Source of the DNA: Candidatus Euphemobacter frigidus
GTDB lineage: Bacteria; Auribacterota; Erginobacteria; Erginobacterales; Erginobacteraceae
NCBI GenBank assembly: GCA_030765805.1
Contig: JAVCDH010000003.1
Coordinates: 5,021 to 69,020, forward strand
Direction of reading: 5' to 3'
DNA: 64,000 nucleotides
Shown: in pieces, positions 1-31,476 of the stretch
Numbering within the stretch: the stretch's first letter is position 1
Layout of the letters: each line of letters begins with the position of its first letter
Notes under the pieces: generated by a model
The model's input: only the letters and a program-made list of their open reading frames with translations
Database searches by the model: none
What the model was told of the DNA's origin: nothing
Program-made: the position numbers and the translations under genes

Positions 1-123
1 CCGGTGCGGGATGGAATAAACCCGGCCGCCCTCTATCCCGATAGGGCCCAGGTTTATCTTTTCGTTGCCGCCGGCGATACAGTAGAGATACAGACTCCGG
101 CCGACCGTGATCTCTTCACTCAT
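1..123 (-). CDS. GvpL/GvpF-family gas vesicle protein, 5' part only (runs off window start)
   Basis: Not in ORF track. ATG at 123 overlaps the gvpK stop (ATGA). Reads MSEEITVGRSLYLYCIAGGNEKINLGPIGIEGGRVYSIPHR, the same YLYC..G..G.G..VY.I N-terminus as the three complete GvpF/L genes here. Confidence 0.8.
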   Translation of the reverse strand, partial: MSEEITVGRSLYLYCIAGGNEKINLGPIGIEGGRVYSIPHR

Positions 124-431
124 TTTAACTCCCTGTTTGTCCACCGGGTGGGATTGGCAATCCTATCGACGCAATCATTAACTATATCGTCCAATCCGTC
201 CCTCACCGACTGAACCGCCTCCCCGACACCCTGCTCTTCTTTGATGTGATCGATCGCCAGGTCGAGTTCCCTGAGCGCCCGCCCCAGGCGTTCTGTCTCT
301 TCCTCGTTCAAGCTCCCCCCTTCCATCCGTCTTACCGCCTGGAGTTGAAGCGCGTCCCTGATGATCTCGACCAGCGCGATCACCAATCCCAGAACACCGC
401 TTTTCAGATTGTCCTCTTCAATATTGATCAT
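120..431 (-). CDS. gvpK: Gas vesicle protein GvpK
   Basis: LGLVIALVEIIRDALQLQAVRRMEGGSLNEEETERLGRALRELD is the GvpK signature. Confidence 0.9.
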   Translation of the reverse strand: MINIEEDNLKSGVLGLVIALVEIIRDALQLQAVRRMEGGSLNEEETERLGRALRELDLAIDHIKEEQGVGEAVQSVRDGLDDIVNDCVDRIANPTRWTNRELK

Positions 432-433
432 GT

Positions 434-1036
434 TTAATCGGATTTCTTCTTTATCTGCAACTCAAGAATCCCGTTCTTATATGACTTCTCTAATTTGCCT
501 TCCGGTTGAGAGGGGAGTTTCAGGTCCTGCCGGTATTTACGCCCGGGCTTATCCACGGATATAATGAGTCTGTTTTTGGCTAAATTGACCTTTATGTCCT
601 TCTCTTCAACTCCGGGAATCTCGGCGATTACCCTGATGTGATCTTCCTCATCAAAGATATCTACCGGGCGCTCCTGTGGCTCCGGGGAGGGTGAAAGGGG
701 GCGTTTCGATTTTTGTTTAACAAAAGGTTTCCCCCCGAAAGTTGCTTTCCGTGCCCCCGGAGGGCGCCCGGTTGGTCTCCCCGAAGGCCTTCCACCACTC
801 CTCTCACCCCTCTCCACGTGCCCCTCTTTTATCCGGCGCTCGATCTCTTGATCAGCCTCCTTGAGCCGATCCCGGAAGGCAGGAGATTTCTCTAAACTCT
901 CTAATAAACCACCAAGCCCGGGGATCACCTTGCCGATTCCTTTAAGAATTCCTCCAGCGACACCTTCTTCTTTGCCGGATTCCTTCTCTTCGTCACTTTG
1001 CCCCTCAGGATCTCGCTTTTCACCTTCTTTATCCAT
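434..1036 (-). CDS. Hsp20/alpha-crystallin family protein (GvpH-like)
   Basis: C-terminal PVDIFDEEDHIRVIAEIPGV...YKNGILEL alpha-crystallin domain. ATG 1036 has an AAGGAG upstream; the track start is GTG 1069. Confidence 0.85.
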   Translation of the reverse strand: MDKEGEKRDPEGQSDEEKESGKEEGVAGGILKGIGKVIPGLGGLLESLEKSPAFRDRLKEADQEIERRIKEGHVERGERSGGRPSGRPTGRPPGARKATFGGKPFVKQKSKRPLSPSPEPQERPVDIFDEEDHIRVIAEIPGVEEKDIKVNLAKNRLIISVDKPGRKYRQDLKLPSQPEGKLEKSYKNGILELQIKKKSD

Positions 1037-2517: not shown

Positions 2518-2518
2518 C

Positions 2519-3127
2519 TCAATCTCCTTTTAGCTTATCGATTTCTTCCTGAATTAACGCCGCTTTTTCCTGATAGTCCTCCTCCGTGATCTCTCCCATC
2601 TCCCGGAGCATCTTGAGCTCAAGCAGTCCCTGCTCTAAAACGGCCCGGGGCTCTATATCTTCCTCGGCCCGGGAGTGAATCGCCGCGGTAAGCCCTTTGA
2701 TCATCTCTACCGGCTGGTAGGGGGCCGTTAATACTTTCCCCAGGAATTTGAACAGACCTATATCGGTGGGGCGATCCAGCTTTCGCTTTTCCGCGCCCGG
2801 GTAGATGTCCGTTCCCCATTTCCGGTCCGGCATTATTCCCCATTTCCTGGGTATGGTAATGCCGGGCTTAGCGCTTACTTGAGGAAACGAACTGGTAATT
2901 AATGGGATTTCCTTGCTGACCAGGGGAATCATGCTGGCCGCCGGAGGCATGGCCCGGCTGACAGAGGGGAGGCGGCCGGCGGTGAAGGGGATAAGCCTTC
3001 TTTGCGGCTTCTCTTCTTCCCTGTCGGGAGGATTTCCGGCAACGGGCTTTCCCTCGCCTTTATCGCTATTTTTAATTTTCTTTGGCCCGGGCTTTTTGGC
3101 CGATCTATCTTTCTTTTCGGGTTTCAT
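2519..3127 (-). CDS. GvpG-domain protein with long low-complexity N-terminal extension
   Basis: C-terminal VLTAPY.PV..I...IH..AEED....LEQGLLELKMLREMGEITEEDYQEK matches GvpG at 5752..6054. Confidence 0.7.
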   Translation of the reverse strand: MKPEKKDRSAKKPGPKKIKNSDKGEGKPVAGNPPDREEEKPQRRLIPFTAGRLPSVSRAMPPAASMIPLVSKEIPLITSSFPQVSAKPGITIPRKWGIMPDRKWGTDIYPGAEKRKLDRPTDIGLFKFLGKVLTAPYQPVEMIKGLTAAIHSRAEEDIEPRAVLEQGLLELKMLREMGEITEEDYQEKAALIQEEIDKLKGD

Positions 3128-3136
3128 GGTGTCTCC

Positions 3137-5095
3137 TTAGCCATATATCTTCCCGGCTAACTTCTTCAGGCGTCCCGGGCCCTTGACCTGATAGGGGAGA
3201 AGAGGGACCCGGCTGATTTCGTATTTACGGGTTCTCTCCCGGTTTATTTCCCGGATGACCGCGGTCTGTTCTTTTCTCCTGGATTCGCAGAAATTGCATC
3301 CGGTGGCCGGGAGGACCATGTTGATTATAATCCGGCGGCACGGTATCTCGAGCCGGTTGAAGCTCTCGAGCAGGTCGTCCATCTCATCTTTGCCCATAAC
3401 TTCCGGGATCGAGATGACCACGAACCGGCAGCGGGCCGGGTCCATTAGAATCTCCTGCAGCTTTCTCACCTTCCGGGAGAGCTCAATCATCTCCTCCGCC
3501 ACCCGAGACAATCTCACCACCTCTTTATACTTGATCAGCAATTTAAAGATCGTGTTCAGCCACTCCCGGGCCACCCGCGGCATCTCCAGGAAACGCAGCA
3601 TGTGACCGGTAGCCGCATTATCCAGAACGTATAAGTCGAATTTACCTTCATCAATAAAATCCACCACCCGGGTCAAGGCCATTATCTCGTCCAACCCCGG
3701 AGGAGTGAGGGATATAAGTCCCTCGAAAACTTCCCGGTCAAACTTAATATCCACGCCCTGATTAAAAAAACCGGTGAACGCTTCATTTATTTCTTTCCGG
3801 TAGGTCTTTTTATAATCCTCAAACAGCTTTGGCGCGTCCATCTCCAGGCCATAGAGATTATCGGTCTCTCCCAGCCGGGTTATGCTGTCCCCGACCGGCA
3901 GGCCGAAGCTGTCGGAGAGAGAGTGAGCGGGGTCGGTGGAGAAGATCAGAACCTTCCGGGAGGGATATCTCGCGGCGATGGTAAGGGCGGTAGCCGAAGC
4001 TATGGATGTTTTCCCCACGCCGCCTTTCCCGCCGAATACATATAATAAAATATCATCCTCGATTAAATCGGAAGGACTGCGCTTGAAACCGTTAACACCG
4101 GCGAGCCGGGACTTGAAATTAAATAATTTCTTCCCCGCCGGCAGGTAAGGGGTTTTTCCCTCGAACAGAACTTCGGCATACTCCTTTAGACGCTCCAATC
4201 CCCGGATTTGATAGGGGAAGGCGGGGACCCGGAAAAGTTCGTAGTCAGCGAATTTTCGATCGATACGGTTTAACTCTTTCTTCTGTTCCTTTTCTTCCCG
4301 GGAACAGAAAGGACATTGATTTCGGCTGCTATTAATTTTATTTATAATAATAGACTTCACCGGAATCCCGTACCCCTTCAATGATCTCAGCAGCCTTTCC
4401 GTTTCTTCAATAGCCAGCGAGTGGGGGATGGTGACCGGTATGAACTCCGTTAAATCGCGGTTTTTCAATAAACCCCTCACCCGTTTAACATCTTTTGCCA
4501 TCATTTCCAAAAATTCATCGGTGTCGTCCTTTCGATACCGGCCGGTAAAATGCCGGGCTAAAAACCGGTGCTTGGCCTGCATCAGATTAAGAACCTTGAT
4601 CCATTTTTTCATCTGGGCCGGGAGACCTAAAAGCCGGATGGCATGCCCGGTCGGAGCCGTGTCCAGAATAACCAGGTCAAATTCTTCCTCCTTCAATATG
4701 TTCGCTATTTTTATTACCGCCATGACCTCGTCCAGTCCCGGGATGGAAAGAGAAAAAAAGTTCTCAATATCCCGCCGGTCGAAGTAGGTCCCCCGCTCGG
4801 CAATCTTTTTCAGGACGGAGCCGTATTTTTTCTTAAAATCTATGGCGTCTTCTTCCGCCTCAATCTCCAGGGCGCTGAGGTTATCGACGTCTCCTATCCG
4901 GGTGATGGTATTGCCGACGGCGCGCTCGAAACTGTCGCCAACGGAATGGGCGGGATCGCAGGATACAATCAGTATCTTTTTACCGGGATGGGCCCGGGCT
5001 AAATAAAGCCCGGCCGCGCAGGCAGAAGTGGTCTTCCCGCATCCTCCCTTCCCGCCAAAGATTATCAGGGACCGATCTTCGATATTCCGAAACAT
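3137..5095 (-). CDS. Tandem-duplicated ArsA/GET3(TRC40)-family ATPase
   Basis: Two halves, each with GKGGxGKT, DPAHS, PGLDE, DTAPTGH/DNAATGH and a CxxC (CPFC, CNFC). Confidence 0.9.
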   Translation of the reverse strand: MFRNIEDRSLIIFGGKGGCGKTTSACAAGLYLARAHPGKKILIVSCDPAHSVGDSFERAVGNTITRIGDVDNLSALEIEAEEDAIDFKKKYGSVLKKIAERGTYFDRRDIENFFSLSIPGLDEVMAVIKIANILKEEEFDLVILDTAPTGHAIRLLGLPAQMKKWIKVLNLMQAKHRFLARHFTGRYRKDDTDEFLEMMAKDVKRVRGLLKNRDLTEFIPVTIPHSLAIEETERLLRSLKGYGIPVKSIIINKINSSRNQCPFCSREEKEQKKELNRIDRKFADYELFRVPAFPYQIRGLERLKEYAEVLFEGKTPYLPAGKKLFNFKSRLAGVNGFKRSPSDLIEDDILLYVFGGKGGVGKTSIASATALTIAARYPSRKVLIFSTDPAHSLSDSFGLPVGDSITRLGETDNLYGLEMDAPKLFEDYKKTYRKEINEAFTGFFNQGVDIKFDREVFEGLISLTPPGLDEIMALTRVVDFIDEGKFDLYVLDNAATGHMLRFLEMPRVAREWLNTIFKLLIKYKEVVRLSRVAEEMIELSRKVRKLQEILMDPARCRFVVISIPEVMGKDEMDDLLESFNRLEIPCRRIIINMVLPATGCNFCESRRKEQTAVIREINRERTRKYEISRVPLLPYQVKGPGRLKKLAGKIYG

Positions 5096-5175: not shown

Positions 5176-5445
5176 TTAATCCATTTCGCCGCCGGCGGTG
5201 TCCACTCTCTTCCTCAGTCCTGTCCGGTCAAACCCGAGAATGTCGCCCTCATTATTAAGGACCACCTCGTAAATGGCCAGGATGTCCATCTGGTCGGGGA
5301 TGGAATGTTTCTCCACCATCTCCAGGGCAACCACCCAGCCCCTCTCTTCCTTGACCGCCCCGACGGTGGTGGAAAGCTCCAGCCCCGTGATCGCGCTAAG
5401 TTCCTCCCGGGCCTTCTCGATAATCTGTGACATTGACTTAGCCAT
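5176..5445 (-). CDS. gvpO: Gas vesicle protein GvpO
   Basis: AREELSAITGLELSTTVGAVKEERGWVVALEMVEKHSIPDQMDILAIYEVVLNNEGDILGFDR. Start trimmed to ATG 5445 behind AAGGAGG. Confidence 0.88.
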   Translation of the reverse strand: MAKSMSQIIEKAREELSAITGLELSTTVGAVKEERGWVVALEMVEKHSIPDQMDILAIYEVVLNNEGDILGFDRTGLRKRVDTAGGEMD

Positions 5446-5497
5446 CTCTCTTCCTCCTTTTTTAGAATTTTCCTTCGGGAAAATTCGTTTGAACATA

Positions 5498-5692
5498 TTA
5501 CTTAAGTTGTCGGTTTTTAACTTTGGCCCCGCAGGAGGGGCAGAAAGAATAGTGATACATGAATCGCCAGGTTTCCCCGCACTCCAGGCATTCAATAAGC
5601 AGAGGTTCACCACATTCGGAGCAAAAATTCTTGCCTCCACTGGTTGCCGAACCGCATTTAGGACACCTGAAAGCGCCCAGGCTTTTTTGCAT
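5498..5692 (-). CDS. Double zinc-ribbon protein
   Basis: CPKC, FCSECG, CLECG, FCPSCG; AAGGAGG RBS upstream. Confidence 0.8.
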   Translation of the reverse strand: MQKSLGAFRCPKCGSATSGGKNFCSECGEPLLIECLECGETWRFMYHYSFCPSCGAKVKNRQLK

Positions 5693-5751: not shown

Positions 5752-6054
5752 TCACTTGCGGCCTTCTTCGTATTTCCGGATGGCCTCCAGTCTTTCCAGG
5801 AGCCCGGTCTCTTCCCGGTTGTACTCTTCCTCCTCTATCTCCCCCATCTCGAAGCGCATCTGAAGGTTCAGCAATTCCTCATGCACTTTGGATTTATCGG
5901 TTATCTCGGTATCGGCCATATCTTTTAATTTATTGCCGATCCAGACCACCCCTTTTACCGGAATCAAAAAGGGAAACACAATGTCAAGCAATCCAAATCC
6001 GGGGCCCGGACTTTCCTGACTTTCCCGGGGCCTATCAGGGTATGATTTTTTCAT
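5752..6054 (-). CDS. gvpG: Gas vesicle protein GvpG
   Basis: PVKGVVWIGNKLKDMADTE...LLNLQMRFEMGEIEEEEYNREETGLLERL. Confidence 0.9.
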   Translation of the reverse strand: MKKSYPDRPRESQESPGPGFGLLDIVFPFLIPVKGVVWIGNKLKDMADTEITDKSKVHEELLNLQMRFEMGEIEEEEYNREETGLLERLEAIRKYEEGRK

Positions 6055-6834
6055 TCATTCCTCATCAAGGGTTATTACTAATTCCACAAAATTAATCGGC
6101 GGGACCGGTCCGATATACTTGAATTTTGTTCGCCCATTATATTCCGTTGCCAGTTTATCCATCAATCCGTCGAACTCTCCCGCCCGGGTTTTATCCACCA
6201 GGAAGGCCAGGTTGGTTATCATGGCATCGCCGAAGACCTTGTTGCCGCGCCATTCAACGCTGGTTCGCTTAAAAATGCCCAGTATGTTTTTCTCTTCCTT
6301 CGCTTTCTTCCGTTCCAGCGCTTCTTTTACCAGCTCTCCCAGTGTTGCCCTCTGCGGGATCGATTGAACTGACTGGTGTGAAATCAACTTCTGCCGCAGT
6401 CTCCTGATCTCGGTATTTTCATCCACAATCTCCCGGAAGATCGACTCCATGTCGGTCCAGATGGCCTTGAGGCCCAATTCCATCTTGTTGTCCATCTTGA
6501 GCGATAAATCTTTCAGCTCTTCATATCTTGTTTTAAGCACTTCCTCTCTTATTCTGTCATCGGGAGCAACATTCTCTTTGCCGCCGGCGATTGTGCCGAA
6601 CCTGACCGGCAAGACGGTAAAATCATCCATCAACTCTTCCAGGACCTTCTGGTGAGCCATGGTGTTGGCCCGGGAGATGGGGTACTTGATGATCGGGGAG
6701 ACGCTGATTACCGCCGCTATATCCCGATGAGAAATACTGTAAACATCGTCTCCCCGCTCGCCGATCGCCGGCGAGTCAAACTTCCTCTCTTCCCTGTCCC
6801 CGATTATGCAGTAAATGTATCTCCCTTCTTCCAT
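6055..6834 (-). CDS. gvpF: GvpL/GvpF-family gas vesicle protein
   Basis: GRYIYCII, AHQKVLEE, TVLPVRFGT, ELGLKAIW, KYIGPVPPINFV. Start trimmed to ATG 6834. Confidence 0.9.
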   Translation of the reverse strand: MEEGRYIYCIIGDREERKFDSPAIGERGDDVYSISHRDIAAVISVSPIIKYPISRANTMAHQKVLEELMDDFTVLPVRFGTIAGGKENVAPDDRIREEVLKTRYEELKDLSLKMDNKMELGLKAIWTDMESIFREIVDENTEIRRLRQKLISHQSVQSIPQRATLGELVKEALERKKAKEEKNILGIFKRTSVEWRGNKVFGDAMITNLAFLVDKTRAGEFDGLMDKLATEYNGRTKFKYIGPVPPINFVELVITLDEE

Positions 6835-6869
6835 CTCTCGCCTTGCGGGTTGCCAATTCACTCTTCCGG

Positions 6870-7631
6870 TTATTGTTCCTGCCCCCATTTTATAACCAGT
6901 TCCGCGAAATTGAACGGGGCCACCGGGCCGACATACTTGAACTTCAGCCTGTCCTCATATTTTCGGCTTAATTCTTCTACCAGGTCGTCAAATTCAATCT
7001 CGTGGGCCTTGTCCACCAGGAAGGCGCAGTTCAGTACCATGTTTTCACCCGCGATCTTGTTAACGCGAAGGTCAACGCAACGGGGTCGCAACGCGTCTAA
7101 AATCTCTTCCGCCTCGGCTTCTCTTTTCTGCTCCAGGGCCTGCTTGACCTCCTTCCCCAGGTTCACCTTCTCATTCACAGCTGGAGGAGAGGACTTTCCG
7201 GCCATTTTCTTCTTCAGGCTTGTTATCCGGGGATCGGTCTCCCCGATCTCCCGGAAAATACCGCTCAGGTCAAGCCAGAAGACCTTCAGCCCCAGTTCCA
7301 CTTTATTGTCCATGTCTCTCAATAAGTTTTTTAATTCATGGTACCGCTTCATCAGGAGGCTCCTGATCTCTTCCGCGCCGGCGGCGATAGTGCAGAACCG
7401 GAAGGGAAGGACATCGTATTCCTTCATTACCTCTTCCAGCACCTTTTCCTGGGCGATCAGGTTGTCCCGGCTGATCACGTATTTGGTCATCGGGGTCGGG
7501 CTGATCACGCAGGCCAGATCACGGAAGCAGAGGGTATGCACCTCGTCCCCCCGGCCGCCGATCCCGATCGGCCCGAAATTCCTCTCATTGGATTCGTTGA
7601 TCACGCAGTAAAGATATTTTCCCTCATCCAT
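6870..7631 (-). CDS. GvpL/GvpF-family gas vesicle protein
   Basis: GKYLYCVI, DVLPFRFCT, ELGLKVFW, KYVGPVAPFNFA. Confidence 0.9.
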   Translation of the reverse strand: MDEGKYLYCVINESNERNFGPIGIGGRGDEVHTLCFRDLACVISPTPMTKYVISRDNLIAQEKVLEEVMKEYDVLPFRFCTIAAGAEEIRSLLMKRYHELKNLLRDMDNKVELGLKVFWLDLSGIFREIGETDPRITSLKKKMAGKSSPPAVNEKVNLGKEVKQALEQKREAEAEEILDALRPRCVDLRVNKIAGENMVLNCAFLVDKAHEIEFDDLVEELSRKYEDRLKFKYVGPVAPFNFAELVIKWGQEQ

Positions 7632-7741
7632 CCTGGAACCTCATGCTGGATTATTATTGCCTCTTAATTTAGGTTAAAATCACTTTCCGGGTATTAATCC
7701 ACGTATCAGCAAATTTATCGCATAGGAATTTTAATAATTCT

Positions 7742-7800
7742 GTCGACCTAAAGGTCGACGGCTACGACATCTTCGTAGTCGCCCCGCCAGGGCGGGGCTA
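7742..7800. repeat. GTAG-type REP element(s)
   Basis: GTCGACCTAAAGGTCGAC-GGCTAC-GACATCTTC-GTAGTC-GCCCCGCCAGGGCGGGGC. Near reverse complement of 25023-25070 and similar to 48155-48213. Confidence 0.75.
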
Positions 7801-18722: not shown

Positions 18723-18805
18723 CTCTTTCACCTCCTTGCTGTTCTTTACTATCGTTACTATTTAATTACCTTTTCGCGTGACTCTTATCTTTAGTTTGGA
18801 AAAAA

Positions 18806-20470: not shown

Positions 20471-20487
20471 AGCAATAACCGTGCCAA
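20471..20487 (-). promoter_or_regulatory. Sigma54 (-24/-12) promoter for the receiver-gvpA operon
   Basis: Minus strand TTGGCAC-GGTTA-TTGCT matches TGGCAC-N5-TTGCW; an NtrC-type activator gene lies immediately upstream. Confidence 0.9.
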
Positions 20488-20872: not shown

Positions 20873-20921
20873 GTGGGAGCGGCTTCCAGCCGCGATTATC
20901 GGGGCAAGATGCCCCTCCCAC
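20873..20921. repeat. GTGG-type REP doublet, possibly also terminating the activator gene
   Basis: GTGGGA-GCGGCTTCCAGCCGC...GGGGCAAGATGCCCC-TCCCAC. Confidence 0.55.
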
Positions 20922-20978
20922 AATCCACCGATACGGGTCCACTGAACGCTTACGAATCGCTCAATTTAGGTTCAAATT

Positions 20979-22373: not shown

Positions 22374-22394
22374 CCCATTAACCTCCTGAATGCA

Positions 22395-23024: not shown

Positions 23025-23275
23025 AATACCTCTTCTCTGGGCACATCTAACAAAAGAGTCCAAAAATTAGCGCTTTTTTGAGAATAGCCACGAAAATTAG
23101 ATAAAACATTTTTTATTTCTGATCTCTTAAAATTCTTCCCCATCCAAGCAACGGCTTTCTCATCACCATATTCCAAAATCCTTCTCAGAACAAACACCCT
23201 GCGTTTTTGAAATTCTATCTTTTCAAATTCTACATCCCAAAAATACTTCTCCAAGAATTTAGGCAAACTTTTCAT
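22973..23275 (-). CDS. DUF6922-like small partner (putative antitoxin)
   Basis: YFWDV......RVFVLRRILEYGD..AVAW motif; overlaps the nucleotidyltransferase gene. Confidence 0.7.
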   Translation of the reverse strand: MKSLPKFLEKYFWDVEFEKIEFQKRRVFVLRRILEYGDEKAVAWMGKNFKRSEIKNVLSNFRGYSQKSANFWTLLLDVPREEVLCLKKRSSKEQKKIWPY

Positions 23276-23310
23276 AAATCATATGGTCTTCGAAGACGAA
23301 CCAAAAATTC

Positions 23311-24861
23311 CTATTCTTGTTCGATTTTGCTAAGGATAGGAAGCCGGACTGTTACCTCTGTTCCCTGACCAAGGGTACTCTTTATTTTAATACTCCCTTT
23401 ATGGAAGCTTATAATCTGGTGAGCCAGAGAAAGCCCCAAACCTATACCGTCTTTTTTCCTGGTGAAGAAAGGATCAAATATTTTATCCATATCTTTATCC
23501 GGGATTCCTACCCCGGTATCTAAAAACCGGACTACAATTTCTTTCTCTTCCGAATAAGCGTTGATAAATAATCTCCCCCCCGTTTTCATAGAGTCCAGGG
23601 AATTTATTATAAAATTCAAGAACACCTGCTCCAACCGCTTTTCATCTATCATAATCTCCGGCATTCTCCGGGACGCCCTCTTGCTCAAGCGCACGTTCTG
23701 TTCAATACATCTGGCTTTGGCAAGGCTACAAACACGTGTTAGTATATTGCCTATCCGGCCCGGATTAAAAATCATTTCACTAGGCTTGGCAAAATTTAAT
23801 AGATCTTGAATAATTTTATTCGCGCTCCTCGAATTTCTCAATATAAGCCTCATATGTTTTTTAAATTGTTCACTCCGCATCTGCTTGCTGAGGCATAATT
23901 GAGCCGAGGCGTAAATATTGCCGAGAGGGTTTCTTATCTCATGGGCGATGCCCGCTGCTAATTCTCCGACGCCCGCCATCCTCTCGGAATGAAACAATTG
24001 TTCTTCTGTTCGTTTTCGTATAGAAATATCCTTTGCGATGTGAACAGCACCAATAGCTCTACCTTTTTCAACTATAGGTGATATAGTTTCCTCCAGATAA
24101 ATCCCCAGATGAGGTTCAAAAAATTCCCTTATAACTGGAATCTTGCTTTTCATTGCCTGATTAAACGGGCAATCATTGGGGGGAGCTTTTCCCCCATGGA
24201 AAACTTCATAACACTTCATGCCAATCAATTCTTTCGGCGCCATCTTGAAAATATCTGAACAAGTTCTGTTTATCTGAGTAAGCTCGTAATTTTTATCTAT
24301 GATCACAGCCATATCCGAGATGGAGTTAAAAGTCGTTTCCCATTCTTCGGCTAACTTCCTTGACTCTTCCTCCGCCTTCTTACGTTCGGCAACCTCGGTT
24401 TGCAGTTTTTCGTTTGCTTTCTTAAGTTCGGCCGTTCGTTTCTCTACCTCTCTTTCCAGATCGACATACGCTTTTTGCAATGCGGCCTCGGCTTCGCGTT
24501 TCTCAATCGCCCTTTGGACAGTCAACAATAATTGATCTAAATTGTAGGGTTTTTCAAGATAGTCAAAGGCGCCCAGGTGGATAGCCTCGATAGCCGATTT
24601 CTGAGAGGCGTAGCCGGTGAACACGATGCACTCCGTCCCGGGACTGAGTTTTTTTATTTCCTTCATTACTTCCAGGCCGAACATATCCCCAAGCCTGAGA
24701 TCTATCAGGGCAACCAAGGGTGCTTCCTTCTTTAACTTGATCAGGGCTTCTTTTCCCGTGGAAGCGGTTATAGACATGTATCCCCTCTTCTCCAGGTACT
24801 CTGCCAGGCTTTCCCTCACGCCGGGGTCATCGTCTATGACGAGAATTTTGTTCTTCTTCAT
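23311..24861 (-). CDS. Hybrid sensor histidine kinase (REC-coiled coil-PAS-HisKA-HATPase)
   Basis: ILVIDDD, CYEVFHG...CP PAS motif, AHEIRNPL, DTGVGI, FDPFFT, GIGLGL. Confidence 0.93.
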   Translation of the reverse strand: MKKNKILVIDDDPGVRESLAEYLEKRGYMSITASTGKEALIKLKKEAPLVALIDLRLGDMFGLEVMKEIKKLSPGTECIVFTGYASQKSAIEAIHLGAFDYLEKPYNLDQLLLTVQRAIEKREAEAALQKAYVDLEREVEKRTAELKKANEKLQTEVAERKKAEEESRKLAEEWETTFNSISDMAVIIDKNYELTQINRTCSDIFKMAPKELIGMKCYEVFHGGKAPPNDCPFNQAMKSKIPVIREFFEPHLGIYLEETISPIVEKGRAIGAVHIAKDISIRKRTEEQLFHSERMAGVGELAAGIAHEIRNPLGNIYASAQLCLSKQMRSEQFKKHMRLILRNSRSANKIIQDLLNFAKPSEMIFNPGRIGNILTRVCSLAKARCIEQNVRLSKRASRRMPEIMIDEKRLEQVFLNFIINSLDSMKTGGRLFINAYSEEKEIVVRFLDTGVGIPDKDMDKIFDPFFTRKKDGIGLGLSLAHQIISFHKGSIKIKSTLGQGTEVTVRLPILSKIEQE

Positions 24862-25061: not shown

Positions 25062-25183
25062 AGAATTATTGTCCCGATACTTTTTATTTGAAAAGATATG
25101 AAATCGGGATCCCGATGGATATCGGGAAAATTCTTAAGCAATAAATTAGCTCCCGGAGTCTGTCCCAGGGCAGCGCCGCGCCT

Positions 25184-25807
25184 CTAACCGTGCGTGGCCA
25201 CCTCATACCTCTCCCTGAACGGCAACCTGTGAATCAGATAAGAGACCGTCACATTTTTCAAATATTTATCCACCGCATGCTCCAGGCCAATGAACAGAAG
25301 GCCGATTTCATGCTCGGCCAGAGTACTCTCTACCCTTTCAGCTATGAACTTGTCCCGCTTGGCAAGTAACTCTGATGCCGTCTTCCTGTAATTCTGCATG
25401 AACGCTGTCCTCTGCGCTGTATGGGCGAGTTCATATAACCTCTTTAGATTGTTATATTCTTGAATAAGAAGCTCGTGATCTTCCGTTCCCTCCAGTCTTG
25501 CTCCTTTCTCGACCAGCTCCAAGATAATCTTGTGATTTGGGCTTCCCATCCCGGCCACTTCACGGACTATCTCCAGTTCCCGGCCGCAGACGGGGAGCCC
25601 GTCTTGATATATCTTCAGCTTTTTGAATGGCAAGTTCAGACTGAATATCTTCCCCCGCAGGCCGTTCCAGGTTTCATTTATGACCCTTATGTGCTCCTCC
25701 CACTTCCCCTCGCCGTACCTGGCCAGGTACTCTTTTTTCGCGAATTCCGACATGCTCCCCAGGTCGATCTCCGTATGCACTATGGGAATATAGATCAAAT
25801 TTTTCAT
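25184..25807 (-). CDS. Hypothetical protein, TraB/Tiki-like motifs
   Basis: IPIVH, YQDGLPVCG, RDKFIAERV, LLFIGLEH; tightly packed in the regulatory operon. Confidence 0.6.
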   Translation of the reverse strand: MKNLIYIPIVHTEIDLGSMSEFAKKEYLARYGEGKWEEHIRVINETWNGLRGKIFSLNLPFKKLKIYQDGLPVCGRELEIVREVAGMGSPNHKIILELVEKGARLEGTEDHELLIQEYNNLKRLYELAHTAQRTAFMQNYRKTASELLAKRDKFIAERVESTLAEHEIGLLFIGLEHAVDKYLKNVTVSYLIHRLPFRERYEVATHG

Positions 25808-25810: not shown

Positions 25811-26176
25811 TTACTTTCTTGACAGGGCATCTTTGACAATTGATGATATAAGTTTTATGTCGAACGGCTTGGTGATGTATTCTAAAGCGCCCAGTTGCAT
25901 GGCTTTTCTGGCTGTATCCAACGAACCGTAAGCGGTTATCATGACCACCGCTATCTCTTTTTCTAATTTCCTCATCCGTTCCAATGTGTCTATCCCGTCC
26001 ATTTCGGCCATCTTGATATCCAGGAGAACCAGATCCGGCTTGTTCTCCTTGATTTTTCGCAAAGCCGATCGACCGCTGAGGACGTAAGACGCGTCATAAC
26101 CCTCGTCCTCCAGGATCTCCGCAAGGATTTCGCAGGTATCTTTCTCATCGTCCACGATCAGAATTTTCTTTTTCAT
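25811..26176 (-). CDS. Single-domain response regulator (receiver)
   Basis: ILIVDDE, LVLLDIKM, MITAYG, YITKPF. Confidence 0.93.
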   Translation of the reverse strand: MKKKILIVDDEKDTCEILAEILEDEGYDASYVLSGRSALRKIKENKPDLVLLDIKMAEMDGIDTLERMRKLEKEIAVVMITAYGSLDTARKAMQLGALEYITKPFDIKLISSIVKDALSRK

Positions 26177-26690
26177 CTTTTCTCCTCTTTTTTTTCGTGT
26201 CTTTTTTTTCGCGCAGTTTTATCTCCAGGATGTTATTTTGGAAATGGGTCTTTATTTTTCCGGGGTCGACCATGAACGGGAGCAACATTTCTTTGGCGTA
26301 TTTTTTCACTCCGGACGTGTCTTTGCCCCGGGCCGATATTTCAAGAATGTCGCCATGTATCTTCAACTGGATATCCTCCTTTTCTTCGACCCCCGGCAGG
26401 TAAGCGACAATCACCAGATCGGACACATACTCCAGGATGCTCATCGCCGGCTCCTTTATTCTCTCCACCATAAAATACTTGTCCGCTGAGAAACATCTGG
26501 TGAACTTTGGCTTCGGAGCAAATGTCCAGGAACGAATAGGCGCGGTCTTCTCCCGACTGACCGGTCCGGCTACTTTTATCCCCCCGACACCGACTTTAAT
26601 GCTTACCCCGGGTTTTACGGATTTCTTCCGACCGCCTCTGCGGGTCCCGGATGAACCGGTGCTTGTTACTGAAGGTATGGATCCGATCAT
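26145..26690 (-). CDS. Hsp20/alpha-crystallin family protein (GvpH-like)
   Basis: KEP...LVIVAYLPGVEE..DIQLKIHGDILEISA...KYAKEMLLP...FQNNILEIKL. Confidence 0.8.
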   Translation of the reverse strand: MIGSIPSVTSTGSSGTRRGGRKKSVKPGVSIKVGVGGIKVAGPVSREKTAPIRSWTFAPKPKFTRCFSADKYFMVERIKEPAMSILEYVSDLVIVAYLPGVEEKEDIQLKIHGDILEISARGKDTSGVKKYAKEMLLPFMVDPGKIKTHFQNNILEIKLREKKDTKKKRRKDEKENSDRGR

Positions 26691-29083
26691 TGTTCTGTTA
26701 CTCCGTATTTTTGAGCTTTTACCGGGACCAGTACAGTGAATGTGGTCCCTTTGCCTTCCTCGCTTGTTACTTCTATGGCGCCCCCGAGCTTTTCTATAAT
26801 TCCATAGGTGATAGAGAGCCCCAGGCCTACGCCTTTACCGGGCACTTTAGTGGTAAAAAACGGATCGAATATCCTGATCATATCTTTCTCCGATATACCG
26901 TGTCCTGTGTCGCTGAATTCAATCTCCACCGCTGTGCCGGACTCCGCTGTCTCCCCGGCCGCCTCTTTAACCCCCTCGTTCCGGAGCTTGGTTTTTATTC
27001 TCAAACGTCCTCCTTCGGGCATAGCTTCGCATGAGTTCATGATTAGGTTGCTGAAGGCCAGGCTGAGCTGATGTCTATCGGTTTCCACTTTTGGCAGATG
27101 GGCCGCAAAGCCTTTTGACACTTCCATATTCGTAGTTTTGATTTGATCATGTAAATATTTCAGGGTTTCTTTTATAACTTCGTTTACATCGGTGGGAGCT
27201 AATTCAAAACGAGGCGTATGATAAGAGATCAGGAGGCTGCCCACGATCTCCTTGCATCGTTCGGTGGCTCGTTCCACTCTCTCCAGGCCCTTCGCGTAAA
27301 TTTTTAAGTCGGGCATGTCAGCAACCTGCTTTTTAAGTAAAATAGACAGCCTCTGTACGTTTAGCATAATCGACGTCAGCGGGTTGTTGAGCTCATGAGC
27401 GACCCCTGCCGCCAGTTGGCCGATCGAAGTCAGTTTCTCGGTTTGAATAAGTTTTTCTTGTGTCTCTTTCAGTTTTATGTAAGCATTCTCTAACTCCTTG
27501 CTCTTCCTGGCCAATTCCTCTGCCCTTCTGCGTTCAGCCTCAGACGCTGCTATGGCAACGGCAAGTTCCTTCTCTCTTTGCATAAGGCGATTTATTTCAC
27601 GCATATCGCGTGCGATACCGACTATGCCCACCAGCTTTTCTTTTTTATCTCTCATTACCGAACCGGAGAAACTGACGGGGATTTTCTCGCCCAATTTTGT
27701 CTTATAGGGCATATCATAATCCCTGAGCGAGCCCTCTTTTATTAACTTTTTCAATTTGGCGGTACTAAATTCTTCTTCTTCTTCTTCTTCTTCTTCTTCT
27801 TCTTCTTCTGCAAAAAGTATATCAACAGGCTTTCCGATCAGCTCTTTTTTCGTGTATCCCAGCAGATCAAGTGTGGCCCGGTTAACAGTTTTTATCATCC
27901 CATCCGAGTCCGCCACGATCAGGGTATCGATCATGCTCCTGACTATATTGTCGGTATAATCCTTCGCCGCGATCAACTCGTCCAGGGATTTGCTCAAATC
28001 CCTGGTCATCCTGTCAAACGCCCTGGAAAGCTGCCCGATTTCATCCTTCGCGTCAGTGCCTACCCTGTAACCCAGATCGCCGCGGCCGATTACTTCGGTA
28101 CCTTTGTGCAATTTTCGGATTGGCCCGCTGATGTTTCTCGAAACAAAAATGGCTACAAGCCATGCCAGTAACGGGATAACAGCCATGATGCCGATGAAGG
28201 TGTTTCTTATTCCGGCCAGGAGCGCCAAGGCCTCTTTTTCGTCGATCTCCGCCACAAGGCACCACTGCATACACGGGATATGGTCGTGTATACCGAGCAC
28301 CCTGACTCCCCTGTAGTCCGTGTAAATCATCGCCTTGTGCGGATGCGGCTTTGAGCCGAACTTCTCGACGTCTTCAAAGCCCGCCCTTACGCCTGCGGTA
28401 TCGACCTTCTGCCTGAGGAAAGTATCCTTCACAAAGTGGGAGGGCGTTATCATGTAGCCGTACTTGTTCACCAGGTATATCTCGCCCGTTCTGCCGAGGC
28501 CCGTCCTGTCGGTTACTATTTTATTTAATTTGGCCAGGCTGAACCTGGCCGCGACCACGCCCAGAAACTTCTTGTTCTCTATTACGGGCGCCGAGATAAC
28601 CAGATGCTTTTTCCCCGTCGTTCTGGAATAGTAGGCATCTTTAATATACGGTCCTCTTCTTCCTCCCAAAAAATACGCGTCGGTTGACCTGTCCAGGCCG
28701 ATGCTCTTCATGTCGCTGGAATTAACAATTACGCCGGTCGTGTTCATGACGAAAAATTCCTGAACGCATTTGCTGGCCTTTTCCGTCCCGTCCAGCCTTT
28801 CTGTGGCGATCTCTAATTTTCCGCCGTAACCCGGGGAGCCTTTGCCTGCCGATAGCAGGTTTGCGATATACATGCTTTTGGACAGTTGCACTACCTTCTC
28901 TCTCTCCGTTTCAAGGAAAGTCTCGACATGCCTCGCCCTTGATTGGGCCACTGAGTTCAGATGAGCGAATATCTCTTTTTTCAGGTTGTTTTTAGCCGGG
29001 ATATATAAACTGAGCATGGCGAAACCGGCGAGCAGGGCGACCGCTATAATGAAATAGATGGTTATCTTACTTCCTGTCTTCAT
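26687..29083 (-). CDS. Membrane sensor histidine kinase (TM-Cache-TM-HAMP-PAS-HisKA-HATPase)
   Basis: Two TM helices, GLGRTGEIYLVN Cache motif, DEIGQLSRAFDRM HAMP, AHELNNPL, GVGLGL. Confidence 0.93.
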   Translation of the reverse strand: MKTGSKITIYFIIAVALLAGFAMLSLYIPAKNNLKKEIFAHLNSVAQSRARHVETFLETEREKVVQLSKSMYIANLLSAGKGSPGYGGKLEIATERLDGTEKASKCVQEFFVMNTTGVIVNSSDMKSIGLDRSTDAYFLGGRRGPYIKDAYYSRTTGKKHLVISAPVIENKKFLGVVAARFSLAKLNKIVTDRTGLGRTGEIYLVNKYGYMITPSHFVKDTFLRQKVDTAGVRAGFEDVEKFGSKPHPHKAMIYTDYRGVRVLGIHDHIPCMQWCLVAEIDEKEALALLAGIRNTFIGIMAVIPLLAWLVAIFVSRNISGPIRKLHKGTEVIGRGDLGYRVGTDAKDEIGQLSRAFDRMTRDLSKSLDELIAAKDYTDNIVRSMIDTLIVADSDGMIKTVNRATLDLLGYTKKELIGKPVDILFAEEEEEEEEEEEEEFSTAKLKKLIKEGSLRDYDMPYKTKLGEKIPVSFSGSVMRDKKEKLVGIVGIARDMREINRLMQREKELAVAIAASEAERRRAEELARKSKELENAYIKLKETQEKLIQTEKLTSIGQLAAGVAHELNNPLTSIMLNVQRLSILLKKQVADMPDLKIYAKGLERVERATERCKEIVGSLLISYHTPRFELAPTDVNEVIKETLKYLHDQIKTTNMEVSKGFAAHLPKVETDRHQLSLAFSNLIMNSCEAMPEGGRLRIKTKLRNEGVKEAAGETAESGTAVEIEFSDTGHGISEKDMIRIFDPFFTTKVPGKGVGLGLSITYGIIEKLGGAIEVTSEEGKGTTFTVLVPVKAQKYGVTEQ
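27770..27808. repeat. Perfect (GAA)13 coding microsatellite (poly-Glu)
   Basis: 39 nt of uninterrupted TTC on + strand, within the kinase PAS domain. Confidence 0.95.
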
Positions 29084-30062
29084 AAAGCGTCCTCAGCAGC
29101 GTTCTGTCGAATGCCTTTTTCGCGTCCGGTTTCTTTGATATTCTCCCGCCGGCAAACTTAATCCCGGCAATAGTATTGAAGCATTCGATCAACTCCTTTT
29201 CTTCCTCTGGCCCAATCTGTTCCTCATAACCTACCCATCTAAGGCCCGTGACCTGTTTTCTGTACTGCTCCGGCGTTATATCGTAGTGGTGGGCAATAAT
29301 CCCGCTCGCCTCAACGGGATGCGCTTTATAATATTTTATAGCCCTGAACCAACCCCTCATCAGCTTCTTGACAAGCCCCGGGCGGTTTTTTACCATATCC
29401 TCCCTCACGTTGAGAGTGTCTATTATTATCTCCGGTTCGTCCCTGGTTGTGAGCAGGACATGCGCCCCGGGCCTTTCCAGGGCCTTCGACAGCCACGGCT
29501 GCCAGGTGACCACCGCGTCCGCATCGCCTTTCAGAAACGCCTCCCATACGTCATCAGGGCCTCTTGGAACTATGATTATATCCGCAAGCGACATCCCCTT
29601 CTTATCGAGCACATGGGCCAGGAGAGTCTCCCCGACATTGTCCCTCGCCAGGGCCACCCTCCTGCCCTTCAAATCCTCCACTTTTTTAATGCCCTTTGCC
29701 GCGACAATCCCGTCACTCCCGGCAGAATGGTCTATCTCCATGACGGCGACTATCGGCGTCTCCTGTGCCCTCTTCGCGACCAGCAGGTCGATAGTCCCCG
29801 CCTCGCAATCGAGCATTCCCTGCTTGAAGGCGTCGCGCCTGGCAGAGTCGAGCGGCTCATCCACGATCACAAGCTCCATCCCCTCTTCTTTGAAAAACCC
29901 CTTCTCCTTCGCCAGGTAAAACGGCCCGTAGCCCACCCACTTCTGAAAAGCGATGTTCATTCTCTCCGGTTCCGCCTCTTCCGCCCTTCGCGCGCAGCCG
30001 GGAGAAAGTAGAACGAGCGCCAAAAAATATAAAAAGCCGGACTTATAACAGATTGCTTTCAT
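29067..30062 (-). CDS. ABC-type solute-binding lipoprotein (SsuA/THI5/NMT1-like)
   Basis: Lipobox LSPGC; WVGYGPFYLAKEKGFFKEEG, DLKGRRVA, DAVVTWQPW. Overlaps kinase start. Confidence 0.88.
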   Translation of the reverse strand: MKAICYKSGFLYFLALVLLSPGCARRAEEAEPERMNIAFQKWVGYGPFYLAKEKGFFKEEGMELVIVDEPLDSARRDAFKQGMLDCEAGTIDLLVAKRAQETPIVAVMEIDHSAGSDGIVAAKGIKKVEDLKGRRVALARDNVGETLLAHVLDKKGMSLADIIIVPRGPDDVWEAFLKGDADAVVTWQPWLSKALERPGAHVLLTTRDEPEIIIDTLNVREDMVKNRPGLVKKLMRGWFRAIKYYKAHPVEASGIIAHHYDITPEQYRKQVTGLRWVGYEEQIGPEEEKELIECFNTIAGIKFAGGRISKKPDAKKAFDRTLLRTLYEDRK

Positions 30063-30231
30063 TACCTAAATCCATCCCCGTTCTCCCCCGCGCCGCAGGC
30101 GCGGAGGGGATTCCTCCTGGTTTTCAGTCACAACTCCACTGGGACAAGCCCGGTGGTGACCATAAATTACCCTCCCCCAATACTAAGTCTTCAGCAATTT
30201 CGCGAAGTGTGAAATGTCGTTCGTGATTAAA

Positions 30232-31476
30232 TTATGGTCTCACTCTGTTACATTTCGGTGCTAAACCATAGGTAGCAACGAATAGTTTATATAATCTCCT
30301 TTCCTCTTCCTTCCAGTTCCTTGAAAACTGGATATATCTGAAAGAACATTCGTATTTTTTTAAAAAAACCTTTATCCGCCCGTTTTTGCTGTTTCTTCCC
30401 AGGTGTTCTCTTAATCTCTTTTTGATATTCCCGGAACTTCCGATGTAAAAGACCGTATCTCGTATTTTTTTCTTTATACTAAATTCATAAACTCCGCTTT
30501 TTTCCGGAGCGAATTTTACAACGGATTCAATTGTCATAGGATACAGCATTGAGAAATTCGCCGAAAGAGGGGGATATTTATATCCTGATAATCTCCTGTT
30601 GGCAGGAGGTATCCCCATATCCTTGCGACAAAGACCGATTGAGTGTCTGGAACGTCTAACCCCATATTCGCTCTCTAATTCAACCCTTATCTGGTTATCC
30701 GTGAGAGGCTTTTTTAACCTTCCAGACTCAATATCCTCATTTTCTTTATCAAGGAGCTGTTTTACAAGCCTTTTATTTATATCCTTCTGGGTTTGAAAAA
30801 ACCATTTTAAGGGTTTTTCCTCGCCAGAGGGAATAATCACTGAAAGTCTATTTGCCAATCTCGATGTCCAACTATTTTCGATGGGTAACTGGACTTGGCT
30901 GAATGGCACTAAATCAATTGGTTCGCCTGTCCTTAGATACTTGCGTTGATGTTCGATTATTCCTTTCAGTATTTTATGAGTAAGTTCATTCCTTGAGCTT
31001 AAGCGTCTAACCCGGAATAACCACATTAGATAGACTTCGTCATCTAACGGAACAGGCGTGGACTGAAACTCCGTAAACTCACTCCGTTCGCACGGGGCAG
31101 GCATGGACTCATGCGGACCGGAACGGTGATTTGCACGGACTCTTTCATTCAATAGCTTATCAATCAGATACACTTTATTAAATCCCTCATGGGTATATCT
31201 GATAGAGAAATCATCGCTTCTTCTTGTTATCTCGGCGACTACATTTGGCGAATAACTTTTGGTTTTCCGGCTGATCCCGGCTCTGGAGAGTCTTTTAACT
31301 TTTATATCATTGCGAGGTTGGCAGGCCCGCAACTTGTCAAAGAACAGTAAATTCTCCGTGTTCTCAATAAAACGTCTGTATTTCTTTAATGGTAGCTCAA
31401 GAATATTAGCGAATATTATCCTACCGATAAGTTTCTTGTGTTGTATATCGCCTCCCAATCTTCCACTGGTTGACAA
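30232..31476 (-). CDS. Sigma54 (RpoN)-derived DNA-binding region fused to a GIY-YIG nuclease domain
   Basis: RNELTHKILKGIIEHQRKYL, SW.SR....IIPSG..PLKWFF, KPLTDNQI...SRHSIGLCRKDMGIPPANRR (RpoN-box-like); then GVYEF...FYIGSSGNIKKRLREH...EEERRL...PKCN. Confidence 0.8.
   Translation of the reverse strand: MSTSGRLGGDIQHKKLIGRIIFANILELPLKKYRRFIENTENLLFFDKLRACQPRNDIKVKRLSRAGISRKTKSYSPNVVAEITRRSDDFSIRYTHEGFNKVYLIDKLLNERVRANHRSGPHESMPAPCERSEFTEFQSTPVPLDDEVYLMWLFRVRRLSSRNELTHKILKGIIEHQRKYLRTGEPIDLVPFSQVQLPIENSWTSRLANRLSVIIPSGEEKPLKWFFQTQKDINKRLVKQLLDKENEDIESGRLKKPLTDNQIRVELESEYGVRRSRHSIGLCRKDMGIPPANRRLSGYKYPPLSANFSMLYPMTIESVVKFAPEKSGVYEFSIKKKIRDTVFYIGSSGNIKKRLREHLGRNSKNGRIKVFLKKYECSFRYIQFSRNWKEEERRLYKLFVATYGLAPKCNRVRP

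Follow-up and report, generated by a model that had tools for sequence, protein, structure and literature searches.

The model clusters of gas-vesicle (gvp) genes, namely those of Halobacterium (p-vac), Anabaena/Dolichospermum, Bacillus megaterium and Serratia sp. ATCC 39006, all come from phototrophs, aerobes or haloarchaea, and share a core of GvpA, GvpN, GvpF/L, GvpG, GvpJ/M-family proteins and GvpK, with GvpO in haloarchaea. They have about 8–19 genes (accessible part of PMC9501494). Those listed there as sources of energy or as chaperones are without exception Gvp proteins (GvpN, GvpF). In haloarchaea GvpF binds monomeric GvpA, and GvpL binds GvpJ/M; GvpA-family proteins aggregate without helpers. 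Here we describe a gvp locus with the same core and 36 genes, found in Candidatus Euphemobacter frigidus (contig JAVCDH010000003.1). The whole stretch of DNA analysed, referred to as the window, is 64,000 nucleotides long (5021–69020 of the contig), and the region studied is 1–31476 of it. All credible gene calls in this region are on the minus strand, and hence transcription runs from right to left. Gene families were assigned with Pfam and NCBIfam profile models; open reading frames (ORFs) of 40–61 aa at 15690–15824, 20641–20826, 20792–20923 and 25084–25206 were excluded as unsupported.

The closest published precedent concerns two of the accessory genes. ArsA homologs and Hsp20 have been described in gvp operons of four phyla, and a role in biogenesis was proposed, the ATPase energising a biogenesis step and Hsp20 acting as a chaperone (Castillo and Saier 2010, PMC2963123, in the part of that paper available). 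The clusters concerned (Pelodictyon luteolum, Polaribacter irgensii, Anabaena/Nostoc and an acidobacterium) likewise contain a one- or two-domain ArsA and Hsp20 among gvpN/F/L/G/J/K, with several GvpF/L paralogs. The present locus is set apart from them by description, as the available part of the paper mentions no Cdc48, J domain on GvpF/L, DnaJ-type zinc fingers, Hsp70 or TraB-like protein. A sequence-only reading of the window had left it to the literature whether this architecture was already published. The ArsA/Hsp20 part was; for Cdc48, the J-domain fusion, the DnaJ-type zinc fingers and Hsp70 as members of a gvp cluster, no description was found in the open-access literature (supplements outside its scope), which is not proof of absence. 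The open-access papers that pair gas vesicles with Cdc48 were haloarchaeal or general, and none dealt with a cluster. Among those that pair them with DnaJ none described a fusion, those that mention an unfoldase were not relevant, and no paper pairing them with Get3 was retrieved. In their available parts, the Scalindua rubra paper mentions only '11 gas vesicle synthesis proteins', and the papers on Latescibacteria and Antarctic lakes mention gas-vesicle genes only.

From the comparison of this locus with its relatives, we consider it probable that it represents a conserved, horizontally spread class of gvp cluster with a dedicated ATP-driven chaperone/unfoldase set, predicted to form a hold, hand-over and unfold chain for GvpA-family subunits. 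The relatives were the best 80 of 450 stretches carrying a relative of the window's Cdc48 in a set of species genomes (65–82% identity). They came from metagenome-assembled genomes (MAGs) and single-cell genomes, and bear at least 15 phylum labels (submitters' taxon labels, unverified). These 80 loci, numbered with the prefix L, were screened by phmmer with 43 cluster proteins, and the gvp core was sought within 10 kb. Since many contigs are cut, the per-gene counts are lower bounds. Alignments and the tree used the 46 loci with a complete Cdc48 and a complete fusion gene.

The gene at 8855–11032 encodes a Cdc48/VAT-type double-ring AAA+ ATPase (TIGR01243, 929.9 bits against a cut-off of 802.65). 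Like archaeal Cdc48/VAT and eukaryotic p97, it has an N domain, here of two subdomains (PF02359, PF02933), followed by two PF00004 modules that form D1 and D2. Both rings have intact Walker A and B motifs and tyrosine-containing pore loops; archaeal VAT, which is unfolding-competent, has the same aromatic loops in both of its rings. When the 46 sequences were aligned, the Walker motifs and the D1 pore-loop Tyr-Gly were invariant, the aromatic pore loops of the two rings were conserved, and mean column identity was 72%. Unlike archaeal Cdc48 and p97, the window protein is bacterial and tied to the cluster of one organelle. Its last residues, I-P-E-L, do not match the hydrophobic-Tyr-X tail by which archaeal Cdc48 docks on the 20S proteasome. 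Few roles have been assigned to bacterial Cdc48 homologs, and this one is tied to a single organelle's genes.

Immediately downstream, at 7819–8841, lies a gene for a GvpF/L protein with a C-terminal J domain (PF00226, 46.2 bits) that bears the HPD motif. Orthologs of this fusion were present in 71 of the 80 loci, where the gene follows Cdc48. HPD was found in 63 of the 71, the remaining eight being cut by contig ends, and it was invariant across the 46 aligned fusion sequences. A search of a collection of 5.8 billion proteins returned 599 clusters at E≤1e-10, with both Pfam domains in 119 of the 120 best homologs. Nearly all the named ones are called 'GvpL/GvpF family gas vesicle protein', a few 'DnaJ-domain-containing protein 1' or 'hypothetical protein', and no database name among them gives both domains. 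As judged from sequence, a J domain physically fused to a Gvp protein links the two functions directly, and on this account the GvpF/L proteins are predicted to be client adaptors. The arrangement resembles Hsp70/J-domain/ClpB systems, in which an HPD-bearing J domain likewise sits on a client-binding module and an AAA+ threading machine is encoded alongside. It differs from them in that the parts of DnaJ are split, with J on GvpF/L and the zinc finger separate, and in that the AAA+ partner is Cdc48 and not ClpB. A type I DnaJ/Hsp40 in one polypeptide was considered for the cluster and rejected: the J domain is on GvpF/L, the zinc fingers are in three separate proteins, and the DnaJ models score far below their cut-offs. 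A complex prediction for the Cdc48 N domain (residues 1–200) with the fusion, run on 46-row alignments, gave 0.01 and 0.05 against a mark of 0.32, and was uninformative in either direction.

If the accessory genes were unrelated to gas vesicles, their homologs should mostly lie away from gvp genes. The neighbourhood screen gave the opposite result, with core gvp genes within 10 kb of Cdc48 in 76 of the 80 loci; the other four had contigs of 2.4–4.4 kb or Cdc48 at a contig end. Hsp20 was found in 72 loci, GvpN in 56, ArsA in 52, GvpA in 49, and two of the zinc-finger proteins in 30 and 28. The order of genes also recurred: GvpA, a helical protein, (a zinc finger), GvpN, (AbrB, a charged protein, a zinc finger), Hsp20, ArsA and Cdc48, and after it the GvpF-J fusion, GvpF, GvpF, GvpG, GvpF, GvpJ and, further on, GvpK and a TraB-like protein. 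The distinct type with a dedicated proteostasis set claimed by the sequence-only reading is thus upheld as regards conserved co-occurrence across at least 15 phylum labels; the architecture is not unique to this genome.

The association was also followed genome by genome in two phyla. The host's own phylum was represented by 79 species genomes. Among 40 relatives, a full-length Cdc48 ortholog (57–69% identity) was found in five, all five inside a gvp cluster; the other matches were at the level of FtsH. gvpA was present in 11 of the 79 genomes, the host included, and the ortholog in 10 of these 11; the genome without it is 88% complete. No ortholog occurred in the 35 gvpA-negative genomes searched with Cdc48 (33 others were outside the search). 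The second phylum was that of the genome holding L041, with 401 sampled genomes and a Cdc48 match threshold of E≤1e-120. Here gvpA was present in 22 genomes, and 22 Cdc48 matches were obtained. A full-length or contig-cut ortholog was found in 17 of the 22 gvpA-positive genomes, in 15 of the 17 on the same contig as gvp genes, and in none of the 379 gvpA-negative ones. As genomes of one phylum are kin, co-occurrence is given as counts without statistics. Since the Cdc48-bearing type is the majority form in both phyla, the common form in uncultured anaerobes may be an unstudied one.

Five gvpA-negative genomes of the second phylum (G159, G204, G284, G386 and G424) have only a Cdc48-like paralog, 48–57% identical, whose match begins at residue ~142. 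It sits in longer open frames of 667–919 aa, and seems to form a bacterial Cdc48-like family of its own, with a different N-terminus.

A FastTree phylogeny was built from 51 Cdc48 sequences (the 46 loci and the five from the same phylum), midpoint-rooted and with Shimodaira–Hasegawa-like supports only. The window sequence grouped (support 1.0) with two MAGs, whose labels are Nitrospirota and Planctomycetia. The sequences of its own phylum fell into at least three separate well-supported clades, and one of them (G031) adjoined a locus labelled Chlamydiota. Phyla are therefore mixed in the tree, which indicates that the island moves horizontally. The same mixing, together with the dispersed palindromic repeats in the island's intergenic gaps, might be read to mean that general proteostasis genes are hitch-hiking on a mobile gvp island and have no vesicle-specific role. 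We regard this as highly improbable: mere passengers would have lost their order and adjacency over a range of at least 15 phylum labels, and some of the 35 and 379 gvpA-negative genomes searched would contain them, whereas none does. The J domain–Gvp fusion would by itself be a direct link of function.

The cluster also encodes several holdase-type proteins. At 3137–5095 lies the gene for a tandem two-domain Get3/TRC40/ArsA ATPase with one CxxC per half (TIGR00345, 460.7 bits against a cut-off of 135). Its identity as an arsenical pump ArsA was rejected, as the TIGR04291 equivalog gave 220.4 bits against a cut-off of 650 and no ars genes were seen in the cluster. The nearest solved structures were chloroplast ARSA1 (230 bits) and archaeal Get3 (185 bits), and its CxxC aligned on that of Get3 in the alignment to 3ug6; by these sequence comparisons the window ArsA is Get3-like. 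Compared with Get3/TRC40, no membrane receptor genes are evident, and the client would be the hydrophobic GvpA family and not tail-anchored proteins. In the related loci ArsA is mostly a single-domain protein of ~311 aa with one CxxC, and the Get3-type CxxC is kept in most; the tandem form was found only in the window and in L021, L025 and L029. The two Hsp20 proteins are encoded at 434–1069, with a long charged N-terminal region (PF00011, 25.2 bits), and at 26145–26690 (25.6 bits), the cut-off being 20.8.

Three DnaJ-type zinc-finger proteins (DnaJ_CXXCXGXG), with six CxxC each, complete the set. Those at 2125–2517 and 16995–17348 (the latter with homologs in 30 of the 80 loci) are stand-alone proteins, while that at 14068–14859 has a C-terminal domain weakly resembling a winged helix-turn-helix (wHTH). 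They differ from DnaJ, which has four repeats, in having six, and these would give three zinc sites. A small protein of CxxCxGxG repeats only is also known in plants, where BSD2 is a stand-alone DnaJ-type zinc-finger assembly chaperone. As far as the literature was searched, the link between such zinc fingers and gvp genes is new.

The gene calls of the region contained 22 CxxC motifs, and not the 26 given by the sequence-only reading: 18 are DnaJ-type CxxCxGxG repeats, two belong to a zinc ribbon, and two are the Get3-type dimer-interface motif. The same reading had suggested that these motifs couple buoyancy to zinc or redox state, and vesicle formation could in principle be tied to zinc supply or redox, e.g. 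if oxidation switched the Get3-like ATPase, or the zinc fingers, to a holdase state. Such switching is known for yeast Get3, and the number of motifs and the conservation of the Get3-type CxxC in most related ArsA proteins would be in keeping with it. All 22 motifs, however, lie in canonical structural zinc sites of known families (DnaJ central domain, zinc ribbon, Get3 dimer interface), and none is marked out as a sensor. Moreover, the hosts appear to be strict anaerobes, for which oxidative switching would be rare. Heme-copper oxidase and cytochrome bd oxidase were not found in the host genome (2.26 Mb in 116 contigs, 94.7% complete), and it has three 2-oxoacid:ferredoxin oxidoreductase loci. 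Thus the coupling found no support, and we consider it very unlikely. The association with anaerobes noted in the sequence-only reading was borne out, the carriers being mostly labelled as anaerobic (anammox bacteria, Syntrophorhabdus, Anaerolineales, Clostridia, Omnitrophota, Aminicenantes and others).

An Hsp70 is encoded to the left of the window. This protein is a paralog: another contig of the genome encodes a second Hsp70, with 49% identity to it. Its four closest metagenomic relatives (L102–L105, 57–76% identity) are all linked to gvp genes. A raw count of 31 'GVP'-linked relatives out of 80 was discarded as inflated by ordinary DnaJ matching the J domain; only L102–L105 have real gvp genes.

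Known activities of these families indicate how the parts might work together. Small heat-shock proteins and DnaJ zinc-finger domains are holdases, and Get3 shields hydrophobic segments; J domains switch on Hsp70, and Cdc48/VAT is a threading unfoldase. In the scheme that we favour, new hydrophobic GvpA-family subunits would be held soluble by the small heat-shock proteins, the stand-alone zinc-finger proteins and the Get3-like ATPase. The fusion would bind GvpA-family clients through its GvpF/L domain, and its J domain would switch on Hsp70, here the cluster paralog and elsewhere probably the housekeeping DnaK. Cdc48 would then thread misassembled or collapsed shell protein through its pore, so that subunits could be re-used or cleared, and a putative hydrolase of TraB/ChaN type may act downstream of it. 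Expression would be set by histidine kinases and response regulators that feed an NtrC-type activator, acting on a sigma-54 promoter upstream of a response-regulator/gvpA operon. In sum, gas-vesicle protein would be checked for quality and recycled independently of the general stress response. Three published observations fit such a chain: the aggregation of GvpA without helpers cited above, the induction of heat-shock genes by gas-vesicle collapse in a cyanobacterium (10.64898/2026.05.31.729101), and the proteotoxic stress caused by heterologous gas-vesicle expression (PMC12848028), the last two as given in the available parts of these papers. The available part of the former also states that no recognition factor was found and that the handling of collapsed sheets is unknown. 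For GvpA solubility and the fate of collapsed sheets, the cluster names candidate machinery that is directly testable. Heterologous expression of gas vesicles as ultrasound reporters suffers from proteotoxic stress (PMC12848028, same part), for which a chaperone set that co-evolved in nature is an evident candidate to try. More generally, the recurrence of this combination in bacteria of many phyla, uncultured and for the most part anaerobic, suggests that gas vesicles are also built or recycled in a way that has yet to be studied.

A bolder version may be put forward only tentatively. The cluster could be an organelle kit, passed horizontally among anaerobic bacteria of many phyla, that encodes gas vesicles together with their ATP-driven dismantling: Cdc48, targeted by GvpF-J/Hsp70 and supplied by the Get3-like ATPase and the zinc-finger proteins as holdases, would pull GvpA out of shells, whether intact or collapsed. 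Buoyancy would then be lowered and subunits recycled on command under sigma-54/two-component control, as opposed to dilution or turgor collapse. If true, this would give a defined job to a bacterial Cdc48, and an answer to how collapsed vesicles are handled.

Several observations weigh against the proposed chaperone/unfoldase class. With the query used, the Cdc48 ortholog was missed in 5 of the 22 gvpA-positive genomes of the second phylum and in 1 of the 11 of the host's phylum; hence Cdc48 is not needed for every gvp cluster, and in the second phylum clusters without it coexist with those that bear it. Kinship within a phylum means that the co-occurrence counts are not independent events. 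The second GvpN, a 373-aa protein, the TPR protein and the tandem ArsA are confined to few loci. The Hsp70 paralog occurred in only 8 of the 80 loci within 10-kb flanks, and its more distant relatives are ordinary dnaK loci; a cluster-owned Hsp70 is therefore a feature of a subtype and not of the class. The carriers seen are all uncultured, vesicle formation by this class is a prediction from its genes, and no RNA run was present among the runs found to hold the locus. Finally, the substrate of Cdc48 could be regulators rather than shell protein. Assembly quality control, recycling after collapse, commanded disassembly and regulator turnover are all conceivable roles, between which the sequence does not decide.

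The uncultured state of the carriers and the lack of an RNA run would also suit a cluster that is real but silent, or GvpA-family assemblies that serve a purpose other than buoyancy; many gvp-bearing soil actinomycetes are not known to float. We think this quite improbable, because the genes are all intact, purifying selection is evident from the column identity of Cdc48, and GvpA is typical. Furthermore, at least half of the sampled words of the DNA were present in each of 10 runs labelled salt lake metagenome (two of the runs may be the source), and position matters in the stratified water column of such a lake.

The core by which the locus is recognised is complete in Pfam and NCBIfam terms: GvpA, a GvpA/J-family protein, two GvpN, four GvpF/L, GvpG, a GvpG-like protein, GvpK and GvpO. 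A GvpA-family shell gene is thus present together with two more members of its family, and GvpN, GvpF/L, GvpG, GvpK and GvpJ/M-type genes stand together in one locus; from these genes, gas-filled vesicles are predicted as the product. The major shell protein GvpA is encoded at 19646–19849 (PF00741, 59.8 bits) and GvpN at 15849–16766 (TIGR02640, 330.8 bits against a cut-off of 266.8). Besides the fusion, GvpF/L paralogs lie at 6055–6888 (PF06386, 182.6 bits) and 6870–7631 (214.5 bits), and the N-terminus of a fourth at 1–144 (215 bits for the whole protein of 268 aa, which continues left of the window). GvpG is at 5752–6054 (PF05120, 85.8 bits), and a GvpG-like protein with a long N-terminal extension at 2519–3127 (36.5 bits). 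GvpK is at 120–431 (PF05121, 65.4 bits), and a GvpA/J-family protein with a C-terminal zinc ribbon of two CxxC at 1458–1808 (Pfam). GvpO was called at 5176–5640 (PF05800, 59.7 bits), and its true start is probably further in, as the Pfam match starts at residue 58. The co-oriented gvp locus of over 31 kb seen in the sequence-only reading is thus real, with 36 minus-strand genes in 1–31476. All the accessory genes that it named were located (Cdc48, tandem ArsA/Get3, two Hsp20, a J domain, three zinc-finger proteins, TPR, wHTH, AbrB); its wHTH and AbrB calls are weak Pfam matches, the wHTHs being below the cut-offs. The Hsp70 paralog, which completes the J-domain part, the TraB/ChaN-like protein and the sigma-54 promoter were beyond the reach of that reading.

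To the right of gvpA lies a regulatory block of response regulators, a sigma-54 promoter, NtrC, two histidine kinases, the second Hsp20 and a 207-aa protein. A perfect match to the sigma-54 −24/−12 consensus occurs on the minus strand at 20472–20486, the only one within the 64 kb. It is 73 nt upstream of the start of a single-domain response regulator (20043–20399, Pfam) that lies between the promoter and gvpA. The NtrC-type sigma-54 activator at 20979–22373 has a receiver, a sigma-54-interaction AAA+ domain and a Fis helix-turn-helix, with homologs in 20 of the 80 loci; Serratia similarly uses an NtrC-type regulator, GvrA. A hybrid receiver-PAS-histidine kinase (23311–24861) has homologs in 23 loci. 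The other kinase is of dCache-HAMP-PAS type (26687–29083, Pfam). In other loci, a second single-domain response regulator (25811–26176, Pfam) accompanies the second Hsp20 and the 207-aa protein. An NMT1-type periplasmic binding protein (29067–30062) overlaps the start of the dCache kinase gene by 17 nt, and its membership of the cluster is uncertain. Upstream of gvpA, a loose sigma-54 pattern was seen in 9 of 45 other loci, and such regulation is therefore a feature of a subset.

Small putative DNA-binding proteins are scattered through the cluster. They are wHTH1 (1146–1382, weak HTH_27/HTH_45 matches), wHTH2 (11043–11288, weak Pfam match) and a 56-aa AbrB/MazE-like protein (15385–15555, weak match, homologs in 19 of the 80 loci); wHTH1, wHTH2 and the C-terminus of the zinc-finger protein at 14068–14859 are mutually homologous. 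This richness (three wHTH paralogs, a zinc-finger–wHTH fusion and AbrB-like proteins) suggests another use of Cdc48: with the J domain and Hsp70, it may control the wHTH, AbrB-like, NtrC and response-regulator proteins and not shell protein. This would be analogous to haloarchaeal GvpD, an NTP-binding repressor that lowers the level of the activator GvpE. In four loci (L033, L036, L044 and L052) Cdc48 indeed adjoins the response regulator/Hsp20/TraB-like triad and not structural genes. Nonetheless, we hold a regulatory unfoldase to be unlikely. The steadiest neighbours of Cdc48 are Hsp20, the GvpF-J fusion and ArsA, and the regulators are less constant, with NtrC in 20 of the 80 loci and each of the three small wHTH paralogs in 5–6. 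In addition, GvpF/L proteins are known binders of GvpA/J/M (PMC9501494, available part), which favours shell protein as the client.

Two further genes of this part of the window may be noted. Between the NtrC activator and the hybrid kinase, at 22395–23063, is an AbiEii-type nucleotidyltransferase gene (toxin-antitoxin family). It sits in the region's lowest-GC stretch (0.398 for 22001–24000), has no homolog in the 80 related loci, and is probably a later insertion outside the gvp system. At 30232–31476 a 414-aa protein has a region like the sigma-54 DNA-binding domain (32 bits) and, at its C-terminus, a GIY-YIG nuclease domain, an odd pairing beside a sigma-54-controlled cluster.

Five proteins of the cluster are of uncertain identity. 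The 207-aa protein (25184–25807; homologs in 40 of the 80 loci) was modelled with a predicted local distance difference test score (pLDDT) of 89.5, and its fold may be related to those of TraB/PrgY/GumN, ChaN and erythromycin esterase. The neighbours of the model were ChaN (Z 10.5, root-mean-square deviation 3.3, 154 aligned), HopBA1 (8.8) and the erythromycin esterase EreC (6.7), and the best Foldseek E was 0.05. Of the 44 family members, 28 weakly matched PF01963 (TraB/PrgY/GumN) at E≤1, the best of them at 1.8e-4; the window protein itself gave no match. The family has nine invariant polar residues, including two His, two Glu and one Arg. With low confidence, the model suggests a putative hydrolase of the TraB/ChaN superfamily.

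Directly downstream of gvpA, at 18806–19543, is an all-helical protein of 245 aa with an internal repeat and homologs in 45 of the 80 loci; its real start is probably at 19450, and Foldseek returned no PDB match at E≤0.001. It is followed at 17463–18731 by a 422-aa repetitive protein (homologs in 10 of the 80 loci). The proline/alanine/lysine-rich tail of this protein is encoded by a 15-nt tandem repeat of 5.5 copies at 17514–17596. Neither protein gave a match to PF01304, the Pfam family of the GvpC of model clusters; a weak Atlas lead (0.88) points to a cluster with PF01304 in 11% of its members. By position and shape only, the two proteins are candidates for a GvpC-like outer layer and may stand in for GvpC. 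The remaining two are a 373-aa protein at 12950–14071 (homologs in four of the 80 loci), with no Pfam, NCBIfam or usable Atlas match, and a 130-aa charged protein at 14898–15290 (homologs in 14), with no Pfam or NCBIfam match.

Some of these genes mark an expanded subtype, characterised by a second GvpN, the 373-aa protein, TPR, extra wHTH and zinc-finger genes, the tandem ArsA and Hsp70. It is common to the window, L021, L023, L024, L025, L029 (Candidatus Scalindua rubra) and the metagenomic L102/L103. The second GvpN-like AAA+ ATPase of the window (12028–12957, AAA_5) is 55% identical to GvpN, with homologs in six of the 80 loci, and the TPR protein is at 11300–12022 (Pfam).

As the sequence-only reading had supposed, the locus continues past the left edge. 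There, 5020 nt more of the contig hold the rest of the fourth GvpF/L, a 349-aa GvpJ-like protein, the Hsp70 paralog, a double AbrB, a wHTH and a TPR protein. The 349-aa GvpA/J-family protein (L101:3275–4321) weakly matches the GRAM domain, and carries a zinc ribbon at its C-terminus; a second PH-like stretch can be made out only by eye. Most of its relatives are without the ribbon, as at least two CxxC occurred in only 5 of the 31 best-matching ORFs (30 loci). In the two closest metagenomic relatives the cluster runs on to a second tandem ArsA, a B12-binding radical SAM enzyme and a TPR protein (L102:16250–21716). A 4.1-kb contig of the host, C111 (L182:1–4095), is syntenic with that stretch; its tandem ArsA is 37% identical to that of the window. 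On the strength of this synteny the cluster probably continues on C111, and the whole locus would be about 40 kb.

Contigs of four other public runs (salt lake metagenome) matched the locus at 99–100% and bridged the junctions between gvp and accessory genes; hence the arrangement is not an assembly artefact. All four runs have C for T at 4146, and three of the four a 1-nt deletion variant at 15567, in an intergenic repeat; these are population variants of the same organism. Directly right of the region, on the same strand (31498–33507), are genes for a UbiB/ABC1 kinase and a phasin-like protein, probably unrelated housekeeping functions. Palindromic intergenic elements were noted at 2069–2112, 7740–7780 and 15567–15692, with depth spikes and many loose ends in the contigs of the other runs. 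The element at 7720–7800 had 28 further matches across the contigs of the genome, and the elements look like REP-like dispersed hairpin repeats.

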